DNA of 64,000 bases from an uncultured Chloroflexia bacterium (GCA_963810095.1 CAWEMM010000006.1:1536001-1600000), one strand, 5' to 3'. Shown: positions 25,700 to 40,013, numbered from the stretch's first letter. Notes: generated by a model from the sequence alone, not told the origin. A program made the numbers and translations.

Positions 25700-27010
25700 A
25701 TGGCTGCCAGACGAATCGCAATTATCGGCGCGGGCATGGCCGGCCTGGCCGCCGCGCATGACCTGAACAAGGCGGGCCACCAGGTGACTGTTTACGAGGC
25801 TGCCCCTGAGGTGGGCGGCCTCGCTTCTGGTTTTAAGGCGCCCGGCTGGGATTGGACGCTCGAAAAGTTCTACCACCACTGGTTCGCGGGGGATAAGGCC
25901 ATGCTCGGCCTGATCGACGAGCTGGGCTGGAGCGACAAGGTCATCTTCCGGCGGCCGTGGACGGTAGTCTACTACAAGGACAAGTTCCAGGCGCTCGATT
26001 CCTATGTCGAGGCGTTCAAGTTTACCCTGCGCAACTTCGGTCCCGTCGATCTCGTGCGCTTCGGGCTGGTCGGCGTATTCCTCAAGCTGACGTCGAACTG
26101 GAAGCGGCTCGAGCGTGTGACTGCGGACTCGTGGCTGCGCAAGTGGGTGGGCCCGCGGGTCTACAACGCCATCTGGCGGCCCATGCTGGTGGGGAAGTTC
26201 GGCGAGAAGAACCTGGCTGTGGTTAACGCGGCGTGGTTCTGGGCGCGGGTGAAGGCGCGCACGACGAAGCTGGGCACGTTTGCCGGCGGGTTCCAGCGCT
26301 TTCTGGACATGCTGGCGGAGAACCTGCGGGGACGGGGCGTCGAGCTTAACCTGGGCACGCCCATCACGGGCGTTCGCAAGCAGGGCGACGGGCTCCTGGT
26401 GGAGACGGCGAACGGCTCGCAGGCTTACGACGCGGTCATCTCGACGAGCTCGCCGGCGTTGATGGCAAAGCTGGCGCCCGACCTGCCCGACAGCTACTCG
26501 GCCGCGCTGCAGAAGCTCAAGTCGATGGGCGCGGTCGTGCTTGTCGTCTCGCTCGACCGCTCGCTCTCGCCCTATTATTGGCACAACCTGCCTAAAGAGG
26601 CCGGGTTCCCCTTCCTGGCGCTCGTGGAGCACACGAACTTCATGGATCGGGAACACTACGGCGGCGATACGATCATCTACTGCGGCGACTACCTGGAAAC
26701 GGACCACGAGTACTTTTCGTTGAGCAAGGAGCAGTTGCTCGATCGCTTCCTGCCTGCGTTCAGTCGCTTCAATCCACAGTTTGACCGCAGTTGGGTGAAG
26801 GACGCATGGGTCTGGAAGACGGCCTACGCCCAACCTGTGCCCCCGGTTAATCACTCGCAGAACATCCCCCCGCTGCGCACCCCCGTGCCCGGCCTGTACT
26901 TTGCCAGCATGAGCCAGGTGTACCCTTGGGATCGCGGGACGAATTACGCGGTCGAGATCGGACGGCGGGTGGCGGGGCTGGCCATGGAAGATTTGAGCAA
27001 GACCGCGTAA
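25700..27010 (+). CDS. FAD/NAD(P)-dependent oxidoreductase (amine oxidase / protoporphyrinogen oxidase-like)
   Basis: IAIIGAGMAGLAAA, YEA...VGGLA, LEKFYHHWF, LVEHTNF, YAQPV, SQVYPWDRGTNYAV. Confidence 0.85.
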   Translation: MAARRIAIIGAGMAGLAAAHDLNKAGHQVTVYEAAPEVGGLASGFKAPGWDWTLEKFYHHWFAGDKAMLGLIDELGWSDKVIFRRPWTVVYYKDKFQALDSYVEAFKFTLRNFGPVDLVRFGLVGVFLKLTSNWKRLERVTADSWLRKWVGPRVYNAIWRPMLVGKFGEKNLAVVNAAWFWARVKARTTKLGTFAGGFQRFLDMLAENLRGRGVELNLGTPITGVRKQGDGLLVETANGSQAYDAVISTSSPALMAKLAPDLPDSYSAALQKLKSMGAVVLVVSLDRSLSPYYWHNLPKEAGFPFLALVEHTNFMDREHYGGDTIIYCGDYLETDHEYFSLSKEQLLDRFLPAFSRFNPQFDRSWVKDAWVWKTAYAQPVPPVNHSQNIPPLRTPVPGLYFASMSQVYPWDRGTNYAVEIGRRVAGLAMEDLSKTA

Positions 27011-27151: not shown

Positions 27152-28251
27152 ATGCTTTTCGGTAAGAAGGAAGTCACGCGTCGAGATGGTGCTTGGCGCG
27201 CTCAAACACGTGCAGGAGCCGGAGCTCCACAAGGACCTCGTGACGCTTAACATGGTGAAGGACATCCAGGTGCAGGATGGCGACGTGGCATTTACCGTCA
27301 CGCTGACCACGCCGGCCTGCCCTTTGAAATCACAAATCGAGACCGAGGCGAAGGCCGCGGTCGCGCAGGTGCCCGGCGTGCGCAGCGTCAAGGTGAACTT
27401 TGACGCGCAGGTGCGGGCGGATCACCGCATCAACGCGAAGCTCGCGGTGCCGATCAAGAACATTATCGCGGTCGCCAGCGGCAAGGGTGGCGTGGGCAAG
27501 ACCACGGTCTCGGCCAACCTCGCCGTCGCGCTGAGCCAGATGGGCGCGCGGGTCGGCATCCTGGACGCGGACATTTACGGTCCCAACGTGCCGATCGTCA
27601 TGGGTGTGAACAGCCCTGGCCGACGTCGAGTCCGACAAGATGGTGCCGCCCTACGCACACGGCATCCAGGTCATGTCGATCGGTTTCCTGGTGCCCGACG
27701 GCGAAGCGCTGGTGTGGCGCGGGCCCATGCTGCACAAGGCCATCCAGCAGTTGCTGACCGACGTGGCCTGGGGCGATCCACAGGGCCGGACGGACGCGGA
27801 ACGCGAGCTCGACTACCTGGTGGTGGACCTGCCGCCGGGAACCGGCGACGCCCAGATGAGCCTGGCGCAGCTTGTGCCGCTGACCGGCGCGGTCATCGTC
27901 ACGACGCCCCAGAACGTGGCGCTGGCCGATGCGACCCGTGGCATCACGGCGTTCAACCGGCTCGAAGTGCCCGTACTCGGCCTGATCGAGAACATGGCCG
28001 GCGACGTGTTCGGGGTCGGTGGGGGTGAGGCGGCCGCGCAGAAGCTCGGCATCCCGTTCCTGGGCCGCGTGGGTCTTGCGACGGTGGTGCGCGAAAGCGG
28101 CGACAAGGGCGAGCCCGTCGTGGCCTGCTGCCCCGAGACGGAGCAGGCGCAGGTGTTCCGTGACATCGCGCAGCGTGTTGCCGCCCAGGTCAGCGTGCTG
28201 AACGCCCGGCGCCCCGCGCCCGGCAGCGTGCCGATCAAGCTCGAACTGTAG
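27152..28251 (+). CDS. mrp: Mrp/NBP35 (ApbC) Fe-S cluster carrier ATPase; frameshifts near 27180 and 27615
   Basis: [69 protein letters not shown]. Confidence 0.92.
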
Positions 28252-28315: not shown

Positions 28316-29089
28316 TTAAGTGACCTGTTTGTTGGGCATCTCATCGACGGCCGGCTGGGCAGGGAGCGGCTTCCGGCCATGGATGAGGTGCATTTTCAGC
28401 CCCATCTTATACAACCCCTTACCCATGGGGGTGGTCTGCAGCGCTTCGTCGAACGACGGCGCGGTTCCTCCCGAGCGAATGATGCGCAGGTACTCGCGGA
28501 TTTCGGGGATGCTGGCGAGGAGGAAAATCGCGTTGACGATCACCGCATAGGCGACGTAGCGCCAGTCCTTCGTGGTGAACCAGAACCATGGGATTAGCAA
28601 CCACATGCCGCCGATAAAGGTGACGAACGCGTCGCGCAGGAGCAGGCCGATGATCGGGCCGCCAAAACCGCACACGACCGTGGCGAGTGGATCGAAGGCG
28701 AGCACCCCGCCGTACACCTGCGAAATGCCCCGGCCCCCTCGGAACCGGTAATAGACGGGCCAGACATGCCCCGCCATCCCCGCAGCCGCGACAACCAGGA
28801 AGTAGGTTTCCCCCGGATACGCGAGCCGGAAAGCCAGCGTTGGGATGAAAATCTTCAGCATGTCCAGCAGGCCGGTCAGCATGCCGATCTTTGGGTTCGT
28901 GCGGAGAGAAAGTGCCGTGGCGTTGACAGACGTGACGCTCAGCGTCTGCTGTCCTTCCTCAAGCGTGTATGTTGTGCGGCTGAAGTCTGCGCCTGGCGCG
29001 ACAAAATGCGCCACCACGCGGGTGAAAGAGATGGCGCCGACGAAGTAACCGACGGCAGCCGCAGCAAACAGGATCGGACCGATCTCCAT
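28316..29089 (-). CDS. plsY: PlsY-like glycerol-3-phosphate acyltransferase (divergent)
   Basis: GYFVGAISF, LLDMLK, AGHVWPVYYRFRGGRGI; multiple TM helices; motif 1 (GSGN.GATN) altered to TSVNATA; GAGG RBS. Confidence 0.72.
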   Translation of the reverse strand: MEIGPILFAAAAVGYFVGAISFTRVVAHFVAPGADFSRTTYTLEEGQQTLSVTSVNATALSLRTNPKIGMLTGLLDMLKIFIPTLAFRLAYPGETYFLVVAAAGMAGHVWPVYYRFRGGRGISQVYGGVLAFDPLATVVCGFGGPIIGLLLRDAFVTFIGGMWLLIPWFWFTTKDWRYVAYAVIVNAIFLLASIPEIREYLRIIRSGGTAPSFDEALQTTPMGKGLYKMGLKMHLIHGRKPLPAQPAVDEMPNKQVT

Positions 29090-29108
29090 ACCGCACCTCA
29101 TGCAAGAT

Positions 29109-31595
29109 CTATTCCAGGTAGACGCGGCCCTGGCCGCCATCCACGGTGAGAGCCTGGCCGTCGTAGATGCGGCGCGTCGCGTCCCGCACGCTGACGACTG
29201 CGGGCAGGTTGTACTCCCGGGCCACGATAGCCGCATGGGACAACTGCCCGCCTGTCTCCGCCACGATGCCGCCGATTCCGGCGAACAGCGGCGTCCAGCC
29301 GACGTCGCTGAACGGGACGACCAGGATGTCAGAGTGACCGAGCGTGGCGGGGGCATCGGCCGGATCATGGATGATCCGTGCGAAGCCGCGTGCCCGGCCG
29401 GGACTGCCCCCGATGCCACTCAGATAAGCCGCGCTTTCCACGGGGCCGCAGGGGGTCGGCCTGGCGGCCGGCTGCCCCGGAAGGCCGACGACCACCTCGG
29501 GGGGTTCCAGCGCTGCGTCCGCGGCCATGTCTGTGCGTCGTCCGTCGATGCACTCGGCCGCCACAGATGCAGGCCATCGGCCGGCCGCCAGCTCGCCCAG
29601 CTCTCGGCGCGTCAGGTAGAACAGGCTCTCGGGCTCCGCAAGGCAACCCTGCTCCACCAGCCGCCGGCCTGCGGCCAGGAACAGCCGGCGCATCTCGTAG
29701 GTGTACTCGGAGATCAGTACGCTGGCGCGTTCCCGCCAGTCGACGGAGGTCGTCGCGCCCGTCATGAGGCGCCGGAAAACCCAGCGGTCGAGCGGGCCGC
29801 CCGACTCGCAGACGCGGGCGGACGCAGCTTCGCGGATGATCCCGGCCTTCTGCTGGCCCACGGATGCTGAGGTAACACCACGTGCGATGGAGCGCCAGAT
29901 CAGTGCAGGGTTCTCGGCCCAGGAGGGGAAGCTGAAGTCCGAGCCGTTGCTGCTCAGATAGCCGTGGCGGGCGAGGAACGCGTCTACGCCCTCCAAGACG
30001 ACGCGCCCCTGCTCTGAGGCGCCGAGAGCGCGCGCAGCGTGCCGTCATCCGCGGCCAACAGCGCAGCGCGTGTTTCCTCGTCCAGGTAGTTTGCCTGCTC
30101 GGCCAGCCGGATCAGGTCCAACGACGGCTCGAGGCTCTTGATACCGGCCACGCCGCGAAGCAGATCACCGAACTCGACGCCCGGCGCCTTACGAGCAACC
30201 CAAGTCCGCAGGACGCGGGCGCGGGCCGCGCTGTTGAACACGCAGCAGAAGAAAAACCAAAAGAGGCTGTTGCGCAGGGCGGTCAGGGTGTCCAGCTCGA
30301 TCAACAACCCGGATAACGGCACTGCCGTCCAATCGCGCGTTCGGAACGGTTCGAGCCGGCTGCGCCCCTCGCGGAGCGGACGCGCCTGCCCGTCCGTGAG
30401 GCGACCCGTCTGGACCACGAGCCGCACCATGCGCAACGTAATTCCGAGTAAGCGCAGGCTGGGGCGCATGGGGACTCGGTCCCTGCGCTCGTCGCGCAGC
30501 ATCATCTCGAACAGGTTCGCCGGCAGTCCCGCCTCGGACAGCAGTTCCGACAGAACCGTCATGTCGGCATACACGCGCGAGTAATGTCTTGTGACCAGGC
30601 GCGCCGTGTCGATATCCCGCCTGCCGAGCAGCGCGGCGAAGAGCGTGCCGAATACCTCGTTCACCTTGGCCAAAGTGTTGACGTCGTACACCATGGGCTT
30701 GACCAGGCCGGGGGCCATGTCGGAGACAATGGCGCGGGAGTATACATGCCGGTCACGCAGCGTGGTGATCGGACGCGCCTGGAGGACGTGAAATGCCGCG
30801 CCATCCCATGCCCACTCGACGTCCTGGGGCACGCCGGCAGCGCGTCGCGATCTCACGGACGAGCCGGGCCAGGGCGCCGACTTCGGCCTCCCCGAGCACG
30901 GCTTGCCCGGGAAGGACCGGCGTCACCTCGGCAAGTACGCCCCGTCCGTCCACAACGTAGCGATCTGTGCGTACGCTGCCGCCGACGACCGCGGCGCCGA
31001 GCCCCGGCGCCGCCTCGATCACAACGCAGGACTGGCCGGTGATGGGGTCGGCACTGAACGCCACACCGGCAGCAGTTGCCGGGGCCATCCGCTGTACGAC
31101 GACGGCCATCTCTTCGTTCGCTTCGAGTTGGCGCTGCGTGAGGTAGGTGGCTGCACGCGGTGCGAACAGCGACGCCCAGCAGGCCCGGACGGCCGCAAGA
31201 AGGGCATCTTCGCCGGCCACGTCGAGCACGGTCTCGAACTGCCCCGCGTGCGAGGCCGCGCTTGCATCTTCCCCCGCAGCCGACGAACGGACCGCCACGC
31301 GGCCGCCCAAGCGGGCGTATGCACTGCAGATGTCCTTCTGAATGGGGGCGGGCAGAGGCGCGGAGCAGACCGCTCGATGCTGGCTCTCCCGGGGAGAGGA
31401 AGCGCCGTCGGGGTTGTCTGCAACCCCGTAGTCGATGCTGGCGAGGAAATCGCGGAACGCGTGCGTGGTGATCACGAAGCCCGGCGGCACGTCGAAGCCC
31501 TGGCGGGCGAGGCGGTTTAGCCCCGCCGCCTTTCCACCGGCAACGCCGGCGTCGCCGGCAGCACGGTTGCGCAAGTTGATTGCGTAGCGGGACAT
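29109..31595 (-). CDS. PEP-utilizing dikinase-like enzyme (PPDK_N ATP-grasp + substrate domain + His swivel); frameshifts near 30840 and 29995
   Basis: GGKAAGL, VPPGFVIT, VAVRSSAAGED..ASHAGQF, VVVQRM, AGVAFSADP, PQDVEWA, LQARPIT; C-terminal DVGWTPLF, ETGGQLSHAAIVAREYNLPAV. Confidence 0.88.
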
Positions 31596-31655
31596 CGAGT
31601 GCTCCCGTCACGGTGGGCAGCCGGCCGGACGATGAGATTCCGGCCGGCTGCGGGT

Positions 31656-33085
31656 TTACCGCACCTTGATCTCCACGAACGTGCTCATGCCCCACCGCAG
31701 CCCCGCATCGGCCGGCAGGTTGAGGTCAACCAGGACGTCGTAGATCTTGTCACCCCGGCGTTCGATGGCCAGCGGCGCGATGCGCGTCACTTTGCCCTCA
31801 AACTCCCGATCGGGCAGGGCGTCGACGGTGACTTTGACGGGCTGATCCGTGCGGACCAGGGCCACGTCTCCCTCTGCCAAATCCTCCGTGCGAACGCGCA
31901 GGCGCGTAAGATCGCCCAGGCGCAGGATCGGCACCTGGGGCGTAACCAGTTCGCCCTGGTCTACCAAGACCTCGCCGATTGTGCCGGCAAAGGGTGCGCG
32001 CAGGGCGCCGTCGTCCAATGCGTTGCGGGCAGCGCTTACGGCAGCCTCGGCCCGTGCAACTTCGGCCTCCGCGGCGGCGAGGTCTTCCACGCGCGTGCCG
32101 GCTTTAATCAGGTCAAGCTGGGCCTGCGCCTGGAGAACCTGTGCCTTGGCGCTTTCAGCCTGGCTCTGGGCCTGGTCTACCTGGGCCTCGGCGATCTTGA
32201 CGCCGGCCTCGGCACGCTGCGCCTGGGCCCGGGCCTGGGCCACCTGGCCCGCGGCCGTCTGCACCCCCGCCTGCGCCTGGGATAGTCCCCGCGGGCGGCG
32301 GCGATCTCGGGCCGGCTGGCGCCGCGCTTCAGGTCGGCCAGCCGGGCGGCGGCCGCGTTGTAAGCATTTGTGGCCCGCTCCAGCTCCAGCGCCTGCTGTG
32401 ATGCCCCGACGTCCGCGCTGCCCCGGATCCTGTCGTAGGCGGCCTGGGCAACCTGCATGGCCGCTTTAGCGTTGTCAACGTCGTTCTGCGCGGCGATCAG
32501 CGCACCCGGCGCGGCGCCTTGCGACACCTTGTCCAGGTTGGCCTGGGCTGCGGCCACGGCAGCCTGGGCTGCGGCTTGGCTGCCGAGTGCGACGTCCACT
32601 GCGCTTGCGGCGGCGAGTTGATCTGCCTTGGCGGCTGTCACGTTGCCTTCGGCAACGATCTTGGCCCGTTCGGCAGTCGTCGCGCCGGCCTCCGCGATCC
32701 GGAGGCCGGCCTGCGCCGTCGCGATCTCTTCCGGACGTGCGCCGGCTTTGGCCTTGGCAAGCCCTGCCTGCGCCAGCTTCAGCCCGGCCTCGGCGTTCGA
32801 CCGCGCTTGCTGGAGGTCGCGGGTGTCAATGCGGGCGAGCTCCTGCCCCGCCTGGACCTCGTCCCCCGCGGAGACGAGGATTTCGACCAGGCGGCCCGAC
32901 GCCTGCATGCTGAGCGCAGCTTCCTGAATAGGAACGACGACACCGGTTGCCGAGACGACGTCCACGTCGGCGGCCGGCGTCGGGGCAGCCTGATCCCCGG
33001 GAGGGGCCGCCGCCGGCGCAGGCTGGCAGCCCGCCAGGCTTGCGATGAGAATGGCGGCCACGACGAAAATGCGTAGTGACGGCAT
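31656..33085 (-). CDS. HlyD/MacA-type efflux adaptor lipoprotein; frameshift near 32285
   Basis: Lipobox LAGC, SGRLVEILV..GD.V..GQ.LARID, long Ala-rich coiled coil, LRAPFAGTI, LRWGMS. Confidence 0.88.
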
Positions 33086-33106
33086 CTTAGTGACTCCTCC
33101 GGTGGG

Positions 33107-35713
33107 CTACTCGAACTGGATGGCTTCGATGATGCGTACCCGCGCTGCGCGGCGAGCCGGCCAGAACGCGGCCACTTGCGACACGACGAGCGCGATGATC
33201 AGGCTGACCAGCACCCCGGCCAGCGGCATCGTGTACTCGAGCTTGAAACCCGCCATTTGATTGATACTGCCCAGCATGCTGCGCGAGACCAGCACGCCGA
33301 ACGCCAGGCCGAGCACCGCGCCGACGATGCCCATGAGTCCGGCTTCGGCCAGGATCATCCGGCCGATCTGCGCCTTGGTCATGCCCAGGCTGCGGAGCAT
33401 TCCGATCTCTCGGGTGCGCTCGAAAACGTTCATGCTAAGGGTGTTGATAACCCCCAGCGCGGCCACCAGCATGGTGATGATGGACATGACGTCGAACAGG
33501 CTGGTCGTCTGGGTGATCAGCCGCAGGGCGCGCGAGCGGATCGCCTCGTTCGACTCGACCGTGAGATGCTGCCGGGCGCCGTACAACCGGTCGATCCGGT
33601 CGCGCACCGTCGCGCGGGCTCTCCCCTGGCTCTGTGCGCAGCAGGAACGCGTTTACATCGTCCACGCCGAAGTAGCGCTTGGCGTCTTTCCAGCTTGTCT
33701 GCATGACAAGGCCCTGGTTGTAGAAGTCCACCACGACGGCCGCGATGGTGAAATCGTGCTGGCCCCGACGGGTGGCGAGGCGGATCGTATCGCCTTGGTG
33801 CAGGCCGTATTTCTCGGACAGCACGCTTGAGATAAAGACCGTATTGCCCGGCGGCGAGCCGGGCGGCCAGGCGGGCGGGGTCCCCCTGCTCGCCGCTGAA
33901 CACAAACGAGGTCACCTGGCGATAGGAGTCGGGGTCGACGGCCATCAACACGAGGCGCTCATCTCCGCCCGTTGCGAGCACCCGTTTGACGTCGAGGTAG
34001 CGGATCGGCGTGACTGCCTCGACCCCATCAACTTCGGCGATGCTGCGCCCTAACTCGGCGCTGCATGGGCAGCGACGAGTGCACGTAGACATCGCCGCCG
34101 ATGTAGCGCTCGATCCACGACTGGATATCGCCGCCGAACGCCGCGGTGATCGCCCGTATGCTGAGAAGCATCGCGATCCCTGTCATCAGCGCGGCGACGG
34201 TCAGCGCGGTGCGCAGGCGGGCGCGCTGGACATTACGGCTCCCAAGTTGGCCTGCGGGCCCATAAAGGCGGTGCAGCAGCGGCCGCAGTAGTCGCTCGCC
34301 GGCCGTCACGGCAACGGGAATGAGGAACAAGCCGCCAAGAAAGAGGTTCATCACGAACATCTGGCGCATCTGTTCCTGCGCTGCGCCCTCGCCGGGCATG
34401 AACGCCAACGCCGCAAGCGATAGGACCAGGACCGCGATGCCCGCAATCCAACCGCGGCGGACGAACCACCCTTCCTTCGAGGCGCCTCGCACCCGCAGCG
34501 CCTCGAGGGGCGAGATGCGGCTGGCCTGCCGGGCGGGGATGGCGGCGGCCGCCAACGTGACGCCTACGCCCACCAGCAGGGCGGAAATAAGGCCGCTCAG
34601 AGGCACCTGGAGGTCCTGCACTTCCTGGGCCACCACGACTTCCATGACCTTCATCAGCCCCTGCGAAAGCGCCAGCCCCGCGGCGAGTCCGAGCACCGAG
34701 CCGGCGACGCCGATCATTGCCGCTTCGGCCAGGATCTGGCCTAGCACCTGGCGCCGCGTCATGCCCAATGCCCGGAGCATGCCGATCTCGCGGGTGCGCT
34801 CGACCACGGTCATCGAGAACGCGTTGTAGACCAGGAAGCCCCCGACGAACAGCGCGATGGCGCTGAACATATTCAACCCCATCTGGTAGCCGGTAAGCAT
34901 CTGCGACACCCGCTCGCCCTGTGCGGCGGGGTACGTAACGGTGTATCTGGGGCCCAGGCGGGCCTGCAGCCGAGACTTGAGCTCGGCCAGGGCCGCACCC
35001 GACGAAGCTTCGGGCCGCGCGACGACGTCGACCTGGTCTAGGTCGCCTGAGCGCAGGAAGATGTCTTCGGCGGTCTGGAGGGGGACCGCGCCGAATGCAC
35101 CGCTGTTAAGCTGGCCGGGGCCGTCTTTGTCCATCAGGCCCACGACCTTCAGCCGGACGGTGCCGGACGGCGTGACAAGCGCGACCTCGTTGCCCACGCG
35201 GATTTTCTTCTCGTCCGCGTAGTTTTTGACGAGCACGATATCGTAGGCGCTGCGGTTTGGCCCCAGGAACTGCCCTTCGAGGATCTTGTAGTCGCGCGCT
35301 TGCCGGTCCACCGTGGGATCGACACCGTAGAGCAGCAGCCCGCCGCCGACGGCGCCGAAGAAGCTGAGGTTGACCTGGGTGGGCGAGGCCTCGTCGGCCA
35401 GGAGGGCTTGGCCACGCATGACGGGGACCAGCGCCCCGACCCCCGCCGCTTGCTCGATCCGGTTAAGCGCGTCGGAGGCGAAGCCTTGCGCGCTCTCGTC
35501 TGCCGCGGTAATTACGAGGTGGGCTTTGCCCGATGCCTGGGTGAAGACTTCGGTGATGGCATGCAGCGTGCTGACGTTCGTGGTGTTGATGGCGAGGATG
35601 ACCGCAACGCCGAGGACGACGCCGAATAGCGTCGGCACCGTGCGTAGCGGCCGCGCGGCAAGAGAGCGCCACGCCATGGCGATCGTGCGACGGGCTGCGA
35701 TGAATCCGGTCAT
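33107..35713 (-). CDS. MacB/FtsX-family ABC exporter permease (duplicated); frameshifts near 34065, 33840 and 33610
   Basis: Two ERTREIGMLR.LGMT..Q motifs, PAR.A.R, large periplasmic domains. Confidence 0.9.
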
Positions 35714-35732
35714 GTCTGCCTATCGTGTCTGA

Positions 35733-36486
35733 CTAAGTCTGCAGGTCTTCCATCGTGGCATTTACGGCATGCAGGCGCTGGCTCATATCCTGCATCCCAT
35801 CGACGCGCAGGTCGCACCGCACTGCGCCATCCCTGAGAAAGACGACGCGGTCTGCATACGTGGCCGCCCGCGGGTCATGCGTCACCATGACGATCGTTTG
35901 GCCCAACTCGTCGCACGAGCGACGAAGGAGCTCCATCACTGCGGTCCCTGTCTTCGAGTCGAGGTTGCCGGTAGGCTCGTCCGCGAGGACAATGGCAGGC
36001 TCGGTGACCAGTGCGCGGGCAATCGCGACGCGCTGCTGCTCGCCGCCCGACAGCTGATCTGGCTTGTGGGTCCGCCGGCCAGTGAGGCCCACGAGATCCA
36101 ACAGCCGGTCGATCCGCTCGCGAAACTTCGCCGCGCTCTGATTAGCGATGAGGAGCGGCAGGGTGATGTTTTCTTCGGCCGTCAGTGTAGGGAGGAGGTT
36201 GTAGAACTGGAAGATGAAGCCGATGTTGTGGCGTCTGGCCAGCGTCGCCTGGTTATCGTCGAGGCCCGAGAAGCGCAGTCCGGCGAGCGTGATGTCGCCA
36301 CCTGAAGGCCGGTCGAGCCCCCCCAGCAGGTGCAAGAGCGTCGACTTCCCGCTCCCCGAGGGGCCCATAATCGCAACGAACTCGCCGCGTTCGACCGAGA
36401 AGTCGACTCCGGCCAGCGCGATCACGACGTGATCCGGCCGACCCGTACTGTTTTTGGAGGTCTGAAGCTTCGAGGATGGACATCAT
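35733..36486 (-). CDS. ABC transporter ATP-binding protein (LolD/MacB type); frameshift near 36430
   Basis: [14 protein letters not shown] joined to [47 protein letters not shown]. Confidence 0.93.
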
Positions 36487-36511
36487 TGTACCTTCCGCCA
36501 CGAATTGTGGC

Positions 36512-36541
36512 ATTGTATAGCCAGTATATAGGTGTTGTCAA
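36512..36541 (-). promoter_or_regulatory. Sigma70-type promoter for the ABC/HlyD/dikinase/PlsY operon
   Basis: Minus strand TTGACA, 18 nt, TACAAT. Confidence 0.6.
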
Positions 36542-36755: not shown

Positions 36756-38901
36756 ATGATTCACGAACCGCTATGTACTCCAGGTGTGCCCTGCCGCTAC
36801 GGCTTCTGGAACATTCCTGCCCCGCTCGAGATTGTCTTCTACGCCAGCATGGCGATTGCAGTGGCCCTCCTGATCTGGGGCATCGTGCGGCGTGTGGTGT
36901 TGTGGCGCCGTGCCCAACCTGAGTTCGGCCTCGACCATCCCATCCAGCGCCTGGGTCGGGTCGTCAAGTACGGGGTCGTGCAGGTTAAGATCCTGCGCGA
37001 ACGCTATCCGGGCACGTTTCACCTCGCCTTATTCTGGGGCATGGTCGTTCTCTTCATCGGGACCGTGTTGGCCACGATCGACAGCGACGTCTTCGAGCTT
37101 TTCTTCGACGCCAAACTGCTCCAAGGCCCCTTCTACGTCTTCTACAAGGTCGTTCTTGACCTGGCGGGCCTCGGGTTTCTTGTCGGCCTCGGCATGGCGA
37201 TGTACCGCCGCTACATCGTGCGCCCGCCCCGGCTGAACATCGACTGGCGCTTCAACCTGACGGAGCCGCTCCTTGGCTTCATCATTATCACCGGCTTCCT
37301 GATTGGCGCGCTGCGCCTGGCGGTGATGGATCCGCCCTGGGGCCCGGCGCAGATCGTCGCCTATCCGATCAGCCGGCTGCTGCAGGGCGCGCCGGCAGAG
37401 GCGCTGCTAGTGGCGCACCGGTCGATGTGGATCACGCATTACCTGATCGTCGCCCTATTCTTCGCGGTCATCCCGTACACGAACCTCTTCCACATCTTCT
37501 CGTCGCCCGCCAACATCTTCGTGGCCCCGTTCCGCAAGCGGGGTGCGCTGTGGCCGATCAAGGACCTGGAGCAGGCGGAGCAACTGGGCGCGGCGAAGCT
37601 CACCGACTTTGCGTGGCCCCGGCTGGCGAACTTCGATGCGTGCACCGAGTGCGGGCGCTGCCAGGACGTCTGCCCGGCGTTCGCGGCCCTCGAGCCCCTC
37701 AACCCGAAGTACGTCATTCTGAACCTGCGCGACTACATGACCGAGCAGCAAGCGCAGCTGCGCAAGCTGCCCGCCGCAGAAGCGAGTGGCGACCAGCGGC
37801 GATGGCAGCCAGGCCGCCGAGGCCCCCAAGGCGGCGAGTGACGGAACTGATAAATCCAACGGCCGGCGCATGGTAGGCGACATAATCACCCCCGAGGTGC
37901 TCTGGGCCTGCACCACCTGCATGCACTGCGTGTACGAGTGCCCGGTGCTGATCGAGCACGTGGACGCGATCGTCGACATGCGCCGGCAGCTGGCGCTGAT
38001 GGAAGGCAACGTGCCGCCCAGCCTGGGCACGACCTTGACCAACATCGAGCGCGCCGGCAACCCCTGGAAGCAGCCGAAGCGCAAGCGGGCAGCGTGGGCG
38101 CAGGCGCTGGACTTCGAAGTCCCCATCATGGCAAACGTGGGCGAGGCCGACGTGCTGTGGTGGGTGGGCTGTGCCGGGTCATACGACCCGCGCAACCAGA
38201 AGGTGACCCGGGCGCTGGCGAAGATCATGTATGAAGCGGGCGTGAATTTCGCGATCCTGGGTGAAGAAGAAACCTGCAACGGCGACCAGGCGCGACGGGC
38301 GGGCAACGAGTACCTGTTCCAGCAGCTGGCGAGCCAGAACATCGAGACGATGAACCAGTACAAGTTCAAAACCATCGTCACCCAGTGCCCCCACTGCTTC
38401 AACGTGCTGCAAAACGAGTACCCGCAGATGGGGGGCAACTACCAGGTGCTGCACCACTCGCAGTTTATCCAGAAGCTGCTGGACGACGGCGACGTCCGTG
38501 TGCGGCGCACGGCCGGCGGACACGAGACGCTGACCTACCATGACCCGTGCTACCTGGGCCGGTACAATGACATCTACGACGCGCCCCGCGAGGTCGCGAC
38601 GTCCAGCGGAAAGTCGTTGATCGAGATCCCGCGCTCGCGCGATATGTCGATGTGCTGCGGTGGCGGCGGCGCGCGCGTCTGGATGGAGGACGAGGGCGAG
38701 GTGCGGGTGAACCGCAACCGGATGGCGCAGATCATGGAGACCGGGCAGGAGGATGTCGCGGTGGCGTGCCCCTTCTGCATGATCATGCTGGAGGACGCAC
38801 GGGGCGCGCTAGATGCGGAGAACGTGCAAATCCGGGACATCGCCGAGATCGTGGCCGAGAACCTTATCGAGACGCGGAAGGAACCGGCGCCCGAAGCCTG
38901 A
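36756..38901 (+). CDS. FadF-like membrane Fe-S oxidoreductase (NarI-like TM region + 4Fe-4S + two CCG domains); frameshift near 37800
   Basis: CTECGRCQDVCP, WACTTCMHCVYECP, WVGCAGSYD, EETCNGD, CPHC, YHDPCYLGR, CCGGGG, ACPFC. Confidence 0.88.
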
Positions 38902-38915
38902 CCCGGAGGAGCCAG

Positions 38916-40013
38916 ATGTTCAAGCGGATCTTGTTTCCCGGAAAGTACATCCAGGGTGCGGGCGCTCTGGCCGAGTTGCCGGTGCTCGTCAAGCTGTTCG
39001 GCGCGCAAGGGCTGATCCTTGCTTCGCCCACGGCCCAGCAGAATATTCTTCCCGCGAGCGGCCTCGACCTCGCTGCTCACTGTTTGCCCGTGGAGCGCTT
39101 CGGGGGGGAGTGCAGCGAGAAGGAGCTGGCGCGGCTGGGCGCAATTATCGAGCAGCGCGGCGTCGACGTCCTGGTCGCAATGGGTGGTGGGAAGACGATC
39201 GACACGGCAAAGATCGCCGCGGATCGGGCCAACATCCCCGTGATCGTCGTGCCGACGATCGCGTCGACGGACGCGCCGACGAGCGGCTGCGCCGTGGTGT
39301 ATTCGGAGCAGGGCGTCTTCGAGACGACGTATTACCAGAAGCTCAACCCGGCGGCCGTCCTCGTCGACACGGACGTCATCGTCAAGGCGCCCGTCCGCTT
39401 TCTCGTTTCGGGCATGGGCGACGCATTGGCCACCTGGTTCGAAGCCGCGTCGTGCAGCCAAACGCAATCGCGTAACGAGTGCGGCGGCCTCGGCACGATG
39501 ACCGCGCTCGCCATCGCTAAGCTGTGTTACGACACGCTGCTGCAATACGGACCCGCCGCAAAGATTGCCGCGGAGAGGCAGATAGTCACACCGGCGGTCG
39601 AACGCGTCGTGGAGGCGAACATCCTGCTGAGTGGGGTCGGGTTTGAAAGCGGCGGCCTCGCAAGTGCGCACTCCATCCACAACGGGCTGACGGCGCTGGA
39701 AGAGACACATGCCTATTTCCACGGCGAGAAGGTCGGGTTCGGCCTCTTGGCCGGGCTCCAGCTCACCGACGCCCCCCAGGCCGTGTCGTCCGAGGTCTTC
39801 TCCTTCTGCGAAGAGGTGGGCTTGCCCACCACCCTCCAGGATATAGGGCTCGGGGCTGTCGACCGGGTCCGGCTGATGCGCGCGGCGGAGAAGGCTTGCG
39901 CGCCGGGTGAGTTCATCCACCATGAAGCCGGCGAGATGACGCCGGCGAAAGTGTGTGATGCCATGTTGGCGGCCGATGCCATCGGGCAGTTCCGGAAGAA
40001 GATGAAACACTAA
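38916..40013 (+). CDS. gldA: Glycerol dehydrogenase
   Basis: FPGKYIQGAG, FGGECS, GGGKTIDTAK, PTIASTDAP, GDALATWFEA, GFESGGLASAHSIHNGLT, HGEKV. Confidence 0.93.
   Translation: MFKRILFPGKYIQGAGALAELPVLVKLFGAQGLILASPTAQQNILPASGLDLAAHCLPVERFGGECSEKELARLGAIIEQRGVDVLVAMGGGKTIDTAKIAADRANIPVIVVPTIASTDAPTSGCAVVYSEQGVFETTYYQKLNPAAVLVDTDVIVKAPVRFLVSGMGDALATWFEAASCSQTQSRNECGGLGTMTALAIAKLCYDTLLQYGPAAKIAAERQIVTPAVERVVEANILLSGVGFESGGLASAHSIHNGLTALEETHAYFHGEKVGFGLLAGLQLTDAPQAVSSEVFSFCEEVGLPTTLQDIGLGAVDRVRLMRAAEKACAPGEFIHHEAGEMTPAKVCDAMLAADAIGQFRKKMKH

Follow-up and report, generated by a model that had tools for sequence, protein, structure and literature searches.

Positions 28316-36541 of a 64,000-nt stretch from an uncultured Chloroflexia bacterium (GCA_963810095.1, CAWEMM010000006.1:1536001-1600000; the whole stretch is referred to as the window) hold a five-gene operon in which a dikinase of the rifampin phosphotransferase (RPH) type adjoins a PlsY-like integral membrane transferase, behind the genes of a MacB/Lol-type ATP-binding cassette (ABC) transporter. 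The module is real and conserved, and consists of known folds in a new combination. It is proposed to be a conserved accessory lipid module, and our leading reading, held tentatively as a claim that falls a little short of probable, is that a lipophilic carboxylate is activated by the kinase and handed on by the PlsY-like protein to an acceptor that is not glycerol-3-phosphate (G3P), after which the product is exported.

Conservation of the gene pair was assessed in the best 80 of 203 stretches encoding PlsY-like relatives, found by a pattern scan with one genome per species, and neighbour presence was determined by searching these 80 loci by tblastn with the protein pieces of the window itself. 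A dikinase was found within 10 kb of the PlsY-like gene in 77/80 loci (within 2 kb in 74 and within 300 bp in 62), and the two genes lie on the same strand in 71/80; the dikinase precedes the PlsY-like gene in 43 of these and follows it in 28. Two of the three loci without a dikinase end 129 and 140 bp past the PlsY-like gene; the third, L072, lacks one and has 2.5 kb of sequence to either side. By the submitters' labels of the metagenome-assembled genomes (MAGs), 52/80 loci are Chloroflexota-type, and the other 28 are labelled Aminicenantes, Acidobacteriota, Actinomycetota, Cloacimonadaceae, Calditrichia, Krumholzibacteriia, Bacteroidota, Spirochaetaceae and others. The PlsY-like gene is present in only seven of 31 genomes related to that of the window, each time with a dikinase within 1.5 kb; the module is accessory and patchy. 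The linkage on which an earlier note on this DNA, made from the sequence alone, had staked its interpretation is kept in both samples (77/80 loci and 7/7 related genomes).

FastTree analysis showed a single branch, with support 100, splitting 42 linked dikinases from 14 unlinked paralogues, a separation that 0/500 label shuffles matched, in an unrooted tree whose unlinked paralogues came from 10 related genomes besides that of the window. The linked enzymes fall in two groups, 12 rows being 39-58% identical to the enzyme of locus L016 and 30 rows 27-34% identical. The canonical PlsY genes of the window's genome have no PEP-utilizer match nearby. A profile search of 1.84 billion representatives returned 170 clusters at E <=1e-30, which are the PlsY-like clade itself, and 10,813 at E <=0.001. 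No PlsY/dikinase fusion was seen with the PlsY-like query against proteins of 451-2000 aa, which is weak evidence, nor among the best 150 profile matches, the longest of which (P0146, 622 aa, and P0158, 381 aa) hold PF02660 only; Atlas look-ups gave unfused clusters only. In these searches the PlsY-PEP-utilizer fusions in cyanobacteria that the earlier note had brought up were not confirmed. Full-text literature searches found no publication on the PlsY-like/dikinase pairing. All five genes are present, intact and in order in L016 and L006. A record titled MAG: Anaerolinea thermophila (L074) has the PlsY-like, dikinase, ABC and permease genes in order, and as this label is that of a cultured species, a cultivable carrier may exist.

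The operon comprises the following features, all on the minus strand, with coordinates counted over the whole window:

36512..36541, minus strand: sigma-70-like promoter candidate, TTGACA-18 nt-TACAAT, 11/12 matches; the ATG at 36486 sits 25 nt downstream
35733..36486, minus strand: ABC ATPase of MacB/LolD type (Pfam ABC_tran, 123 bits, piece 35733-36425); one frameshift near 36437
33107..35713, minus strand: duplicated FtsX permease, ~870 aa (Pfam MacB_PCD + FtsX, twice); three frameshifts
31656..33085, minus strand: HlyD-type membrane-fusion lipoprotein (Pfam Biotin_lipoyl_2, HlyD_D23 and HlyD_3); one frameshift
29109..31595, minus strand: RPH-type three-domain dikinase, ~830 aa (Pfam PPDK_N + PEP-utilizers); two frameshifts
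28316..29089, minus strand: PlsY-like integral membrane transferase, 257 aa, intact (PF02660, G3P_acyltransf, 53 bits against a gathering threshold of 24.1)

The five co-oriented, closely spaced genes that had been described from the sequence alone were borne out by Pfam, with intergenic gaps of 19 nt (ABC-permease), 21 nt (permease-HlyD), 60 nt (HlyD-dikinase) and 19 nt (dikinase-PlsY-like), the last having been put at ~20 bp. A GAGG lies 6 nt upstream of the PlsY-like ATG at 29089. The sigma70-like promoter that had been placed before the operon is present as a motif at 36541-36512, but the match alone is not significant because two promoter-like sites were found in the region against 1.1 +/- 1.0 in shuffles. 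The terminator scan gave 4 sites against 4.3 expected and none after the PlsY-like gene, and an Rfam scan of the window gave no match. The window has 65% GC and belongs to a 6.1-Mb genome of 16 contigs that is 88.5% complete; its nearest public relatives are MAGs labelled Anaerolineales. A genomic island was considered on compositional grounds and rejected, as GC is 0.66-0.69 over the operon and 0.61-0.69 in the window, with no anomaly.

The PlsY-like protein of the window is 90% identical to P0001 (256 aa). Its model (pLDDT 91) has as sole significant fold matches in Foldseek the structures 5xj5-5xj8 of Aquifex PlsY (aaPlsY; E 3e-7 to 1e-6, TM 0.76-0.82 by target), and the seven-helix PlsY fold and a PF02660 match are both present, whereas the score against the PlsY equivalog model TIGR00023 is far below its cut-off (44.9 vs 137.2 bits). 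Residues were mapped by HMMER against aaPlsY and by an hhalign comparison (probability 99.7) between 42 PlsY-like sequences and 9 canonical ones drawn from the genome of the window and its relatives, and were counted over 48 PlsY-like sequences, the retention or loss of sites being judged by alignment only. In the available text of PMC5700162, the acyl-phosphate 'phosphate hole' of aaPlsY is formed by loop 100-107 with His92 and Thr41, and the G3P pocket by Ser35, Arg45, Lys104 and Asn180, which clamp the phosphate, plus Ser142 and His177; the same text assigns motif 1, by correction, mainly to G3P binding and reports that mutating residues of the G3P-phosphate clamp costs >92% of activity. 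The counts at the mapped positions were as follows:

His92 equivalent: His in 48/48
GG pair of the phosphate-hole loop: 48/48
Gly121: 48/48
Thr41 equivalent: Thr/Ser in 37/48, Asn in 11/48
Lys104 equivalent: Arg in 40/48, Lys in 0/48
Arg45 equivalent: Arg in 1/48
Asn37 equivalent: Asn in 0/48
His177 equivalent: His in 0/48
Asn180 equivalent: Glu/Asp in 46/48, Asn in 0/48

Judged by this alignment, the acyl-phosphate donor site appears to be kept and the G3P phosphate clamp lost or replaced, once by an acidic residue. Equivalents of Ser35 and Ser142 could not be located reliably. The acceptor is probably something other than a phosphate ester. The altered motif TSVNATA, pointed out in the earlier note, is present at motif 1, the segment that is mainly G3P-binding according to the available text of PMC5700162. 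The family shares with aaPlsY (5XJ5-5XJ9) the seven-helix fold, His92, the GGxG loop, the D..K motif and, mostly, Thr41, but motif 1 GSGNxGATN..R is exchanged for a VSAT-type stretch behind an inserted beta-hairpin, and the gene adjoins that of a dikinase. It also has conserved residues of its own, R24 (48/48), W110 (47/48), D133 (46/48), W168 (46/48), N186 (44/48) and Glu/Asp196 (46/48), and its additions comprise, besides the beta-hairpin before the motif 1 remnant, a conserved C-terminal tail, IPEIR...MGRG.

The dikinase carries the GGQLSHAAIVARE His motif, with PPDK_N at 30753-31595 (191 bits) and PEP-utilizers at 29109-29996 (76.6 bits). Its intact orthologue L016:7449-9989 is ~49-54% identical to the window dikinase pieces and matches the Listeria RPH (RPH-Lm) over its full length (E 2e-68). 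The AlphaFold model of the L016 enzyme (pLDDT 88, pTM 0.86) has RPH structures as its best fold matches (5hv1, E 3e-43, 21-25% identity) and has the RPH order of ATP-grasp, helical substrate domain and swivel-His domain. No PEP-utilizers_C (PF02896) match, the mark of a phosphoenolpyruvate (PEP)/pyruvate barrel, was found in the dikinase, and the protein ends after the His domain. The domain order without a pyruvate barrel read earlier from the sequence is confirmed by Pfam, the RPH alignment and the model, and the SHAAIVARE motif is present. In the 42 dikinases compared, the catalytic His motif and the ATP-grasp residues are kept, as is an Arg-Glu pair in the substrate domain (R628/E629, >=90% of sequences).

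The enzyme is under every curated NCBIfam cut-off for RPH (NF041857, 322 vs 999 bits), PEP synthase (TIGR01418, 234 vs 740), PigC (NF052631, 319 vs 1300) and RedH (NF052632, 331 vs 1350). As far as the available text of PMC4844700 goes, validated RPHs are >42% identical to RPH-Lm, distant RPH clades keep the catalytic Arg-Glu and phosphotransferase activity with other substrates, and a clade N member that was tested gave no rifampin resistance. At 21-25% identity, below the >42% of the validated clade, the module dikinase belongs with the distant RPH clades in which Arg-Glu is kept. The scores, the identities and the missing barrel set it apart from plain rifamycin kinases and from PEP synthases alike, the two assignments that the earlier note had named as speaking against its proposal. 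It resembles RPH-Lm (5FBS/5FBT/5FBU, 5HV1; NF041857) in the same three-domain order over the full length, the catalytic His, Arg-Glu and the lack of a barrel, and differs in that the Lys of the RPH-Lm REYPK block aligns with Gly in L016 and in its pairing with a membrane transferase and a pump. The prodigiosin ligases PigC and RedH belong to the same superfamily; at 319 and 331 bits, their models score in the range of the best NCBIfam matches. They activate an oxygen by phosphoryl transfer, after which a nucleophile displaces the phosphate, and this logic is the one proposed for the module; PigC performs both steps in one protein, whereas the second step in the module would fall to a separate membrane protein.

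Public records name the PlsY-like homologues 'glycerol-3-phosphate acyltransferase PlsY' and the dikinase 'phosphoenolpyruvate synthase', and in this clade both are very likely to be misnomers. A second RPH-like paralogue was found ~30 kb before the window start (G000:C6:1505493-1508120, locus L096), with an 875-aa frame that is 33% identical over the C-terminal part; it has no PlsY-like gene nearby and groups with the unlinked paralogues in the tree. Further partial matches lie on C5 and at C6:1832426.

The three remaining genes of the operon have the components of a type VII (MacB/LolCDE-type) ABC system, namely ABC_tran, MacB_PCD, FtsX twice and HlyD adaptor domains (Pfam). The window ATPase is 73% identical to that of L016, its N-terminal 16 residues lying in another frame, and the permease, in which MacB_PCD + FtsX occupy 34028-35713 and the second FtsX 33107-33607, is colinear with the 922-aa L016 permease in frames -1/-2/-3/-1. 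The HlyD pieces span 32177-33085 and 31656-32264, and the N-terminal end is lipobox-like (...ASLAGC). Permease matches to the NCBIfam models lolCE, MacB and ADOP are each under cut-off, and the exporter is assigned only to the MacB/LolCDE superfamily because no curated equivalog cut-off was reached. It is like MacAB, LolCDE and DevBCA in combining an ABC ATPase, an FtsX/MacB_PCD permease and an HlyD adaptor or LolA-like carrier, and unlike them in that the permease is a duplicated single chain of ~870-920 aa and in that the curated models are all under cut-off. Aat of E. coli, an acyltransferase whose gene is coupled to a MacB-type secretion pump, is a possible precedent.

Neighbour families were defined by clustering open reading frames of >=90 aa over the 80 loci. 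An ABC ATPase is present in 48/80 loci, any FtsX permease in 52/80 and either in 57/80, a result that supports the coupling to export suggested earlier. HlyD is present in 20/80 loci and LolA_like (PF17131) in 15/80, and the Acidobacteriota-type order is ABC, FtsX, FtsX, LolA-like, dikinase, PlsY-like. Other recurrent families are a cytoplasmic DUF676/PGAP1-like serine esterase without signal peptide (19/80), a membrane methyltransferase of ICMT/PEMT type (6/80), and HupE/UreJ and DUF6512 (7/80 each), which flank the module. Within the module of 15/80 loci, in more than one phylum, lies a membrane-anchored CbiX/ferrochelatase-like protein (411 aa, three predicted N-terminal hydrophobic helices), whose matches are weak (Ferrochelatase/CbiX 24-30 bits; CfbA nickelochelatase 32 bits vs a cut-off of 120). 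Examples of the chelatase-like gene are:

L027:6261-7496
L073:6298-7521
L057:6240-7466
L083:10735-12024
L084:13205-14455

The window operon is without chelatase-like, HupE/UreJ and DUF6512 genes. Chlorophyllase/PETase-like hydrolases occur in 4/80 loci, and a second PlsY-like gene in three, in tandem in L057:9974-11467 and L010:9749-11461 and split by a chelatase-like gene in L083:9965-12706.

Four of the five operon genes are out of frame in the window, a point that had not been mentioned earlier. Relative to the intact five-gene L016 operon there are seven frame changes, near 36437, 34062, ~33860, 33611, ~32350, 30839 and ~30029, the HlyD frameshift lying between 32432 and 32285. As an independent check, low-depth metagenome contigs from four runs of three studies were compared with the window. 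Only four single-base difference sites are listed, each with one base fewer than the window, at 30839 (runs X1, X2), 33611 (X5), 34062 (X2, X6) and 36437 (X6), all on predicted frameshift sites. These four sites are assembly insertions because the independent contigs have one base fewer there, and the operon genes are therefore intact in near-identical natural populations at the four sites checked. The adjoining Mrp/NUBPL-type ATPase gene (27186-28251, plus strand) is also split, into frames 27186-28028 and 27640-28251, and in the same-genus genome G001 the orthologous dikinase is likewise divided between two frames. Because of the insertions at four sites and these two further splits, the breaks were treated as consensus errors and not as decay; the window is an ordinary bacterial member of the module, read from an error-prone assembly. 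With frequent single-base frameshifts in the assembly, gene calls in this genome will be fragmented. One contig of run X2, from a ~97% alike relative, has three bases fewer at window position 29058, an in-frame codon difference near the PlsY-like N-terminus.

Besides plsX, the window's genome encodes seven DegV/FakB-like genes, one adjacent to plsX, and two PlsY copies that score better (129.6 bits for one; 78.8 + 38.9 bits for the other, which is broken into two pieces). With these canonical genes already there, the operon is an extra system that is not needed for bulk phospholipid, and the genome check for plsX, fakAB and canonical plsY that the earlier note had called for comes out in this sense. 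In the PlsX/PlsY and FakAB/PlsY pathways, as described in the available text of PMC5700162 and PMC9136124, a soluble enzyme likewise makes a phosphorylated acyl donor for a PlsY-fold acyltransferase. The module would differ from FakAB/PlsY in that its kinase is of another superfamily, with a His relay that takes ATP to AMP and inorganic phosphate (Pi), and no Dak2-type FakA; it differs from both pathways in an acceptor site that is not that of G3P and in coexisting with the canonical pathway in one genome.

Gene content, folds, linkage and kept or lost residues were observed here, whereas what the dikinase acts on, the acyl-phosphate that it would form, the identity of the acceptor and the export step are inferred. 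The soluble dikinase would load its swivel His from ATP, which would end as AMP + Pi, and the phospho-His enzyme would phosphorylate a lipophilic substrate in the helical middle domain; the likeliest candidate is a carboxylate, for example a fatty acid, from which an acyl-phosphate would result. The PlsY-like protein would bind the phosphorylated lipid in the kept phosphate hole, pass the acyl group to a non-G3P acceptor, probably not a phosphate ester, and free Pi. The MacB/Lol-type ABC transporter would then pull the product from the cytoplasmic membrane, with HlyD as adaptor in the window's genome and a LolA-like protein in Acidobacteriota-type loci, and the cytoplasmic esterase of 19 loci would suit a deacylation/reactivation cycle. 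A fuller version is possible, though held with less assurance than the outline above: a two-enzyme lipid route, widespread in uncultured anaerobic phyla, in which an RPH-superfamily dikinase makes an acyl-phosphate or phospho-activated lipid without PlsX or FakAB, a PlsY-fold transferase passes it to a neutral or cationic acceptor, and the resulting envelope lipid is exported by a MacB/Lol-like machine. In the overall interpretation given by the earlier note, the linkage, an enzyme that is neither RPH nor PEP synthase, the altered G3P motif and the coupling to an exporter have held, while an acyl-phosphate product, an acceptor and export are what we still infer.

Several observations weigh against carboxylate activation followed by acyl transfer and export. 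No transporter was found in 23/80 loci, and although many of these are short contigs, the long-flanked L053, L059, L065, L066 and L073 have none either and carry HupE/DUF6512 or a chelatase-like gene instead. The chelatase-like protein, in 15/80 modules, has no obvious place in a fatty-acid scheme. At the donor site, the Lys104 equivalent is never Lys and the Thr41 equivalent is Asn in 11 sequences. The neighbour statistics rest on the best 80 of 203 stretches, in which related genomes are not independent. To our knowledge, no enzyme of the RPH/PEP-synthase group has been documented to phosphorylate a carboxylate; the substrates of this group are hydroxyls, an enolate or an aldehyde oxygen.

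The main rival, unlikely on balance but with a real claim, is that the two proteins form a lipid kinase, the PlsY-like protein holding a membrane lipid (polyprenol, diacylglycerol or another lipid alcohol) for the phospho-His domain and the phosphorylated lipid then being handled by the ABC system. A phosphate hole kept with the G3P clamp gone could accommodate a lipid-phosphate product no less than a donor, the close 1:1 linkage of the genes suits a two-subunit enzyme, and the relatives characterised so far all phosphorylate small molecules at an oxygen nucleophile (RPH, in the available text of PMC4844700). However, the full RPH-like substrate domain with Arg-Glu suggests that the dikinase has a second active site of its own, for which a membrane partner would not be needed, and the extra conserved PlsY-like residues (R24, W110, D133, W168, N186, Glu/Asp196) look like an acceptor pocket.

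A variant of the carboxylate reading, to which only a small probability is given, is that a non-fatty carboxylate, for example a tetrapyrrole propionate or some other metabolite, is activated and esterified or amidated for membrane anchoring. MacB-family pumps for heme and porphyrin exist, and the variant would accommodate the chelatase-like protein of 15/80 modules in more than one phylum with its weak CfbA match, the HupE/UreJ and DUF6512 genes that adjoin the module in 7/80 loci each, and the chlorophyllase/PETase-like hydrolases of 4/80 loci. The chelatase-like gene is, however, missing from the window operon and from 65/80 loci, its Pfam and NCBIfam matches are weak, and the genome's sole CbiX match lies ~230 kb off on the same contig (C6:1335982).

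Two further readings, drug defence and the ordinary role of PlsY, are both unlikely. In the first, whose chances are slighter again than those of the tetrapyrrole variant, an RPH-like kinase would inactivate a hydrophobic antibiotic or other xenobiotic and a MacB-type pump would expel it, the PlsY-like protein being an accessory. MacB pumps export macrolides, RPH is the best structural and sequence relative of the dikinase, and the module is patchy (7/31 relatives), as resistance islands often are. Such a function leaves unexplained a PlsY-fold partner with a conserved phosphate hole in 77/80 loci, as well as the esterase, LolA-like and methyltransferase neighbours, and the dikinase is distant from validated RPHs (322 vs 999 bits; 21-25% vs >42% identity), with no rifampin resistance given by a clade N member in the available text of PMC4844700. 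Least likely of all is ordinary phospholipid synthesis, in which the protein would serve as a third PlsY isozyme, supplied by a fatty-acid kinase of its own, and make lysophosphatidic acid, as the PF02660 score (53 vs 24.1 bits) and the public name 'glycerol-3-phosphate acyltransferase PlsY' would suggest, against which stand the TIGR00023 score (44.9 vs 137.2), the replacement of G3P-phosphate clamp residues, one by an acidic residue, where mutations cost >92% of activity according to the available text of PMC5700162, the plsX, two canonical PlsY and seven DegV genes already in the genome, and the absence of the module from 24/31 relatives searched.

Around the operon the window holds several other genes. 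An amine-oxidase-family flavoprotein at 25700-27010 (plus strand; NCBIfam PRK07233, 'hypothetical protein', 456 vs 252 bits) has weak matches to HpnE and protoporphyrinogen oxidase and is not conserved with the module. Divergent from the operon, a NarI-like membrane domain with a 4Fe-4S motif (36756-37841, plus strand) is overlapped at its end by a CCG-domain HdrD/TfrB-like protein (37786-38901, plus strand), and these frames, 36756-38901, may be one gene split by a frameshift. A glycerol dehydrogenase follows at 38652-40013 (NF006941, 454 vs 336 bits). This Fe-ADH gene was considered as a glycerol-1-phosphate dehydrogenase (G1PDH) that could supply the acceptor and was rejected, the G1PDH score being 94 vs 413 bits against 454 vs 336 for glycerol dehydrogenase; the gene is not conserved with the module.

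The module is directly testable because it is compact, with two to five genes, and intact copies exist. If the proposed activity is correct, a swivel-His dikinase would for the first time be seen to make an acyl-phosphate, or a phospho-lipid, and a PlsY-fold enzyme to use a non-G3P acceptor, and the product would be an envelope lipid with a dedicated exporter. The names PlsY and PEP synthase distort metabolic reconstructions of Chloroflexota, Acidobacteriota and other uncultured groups.

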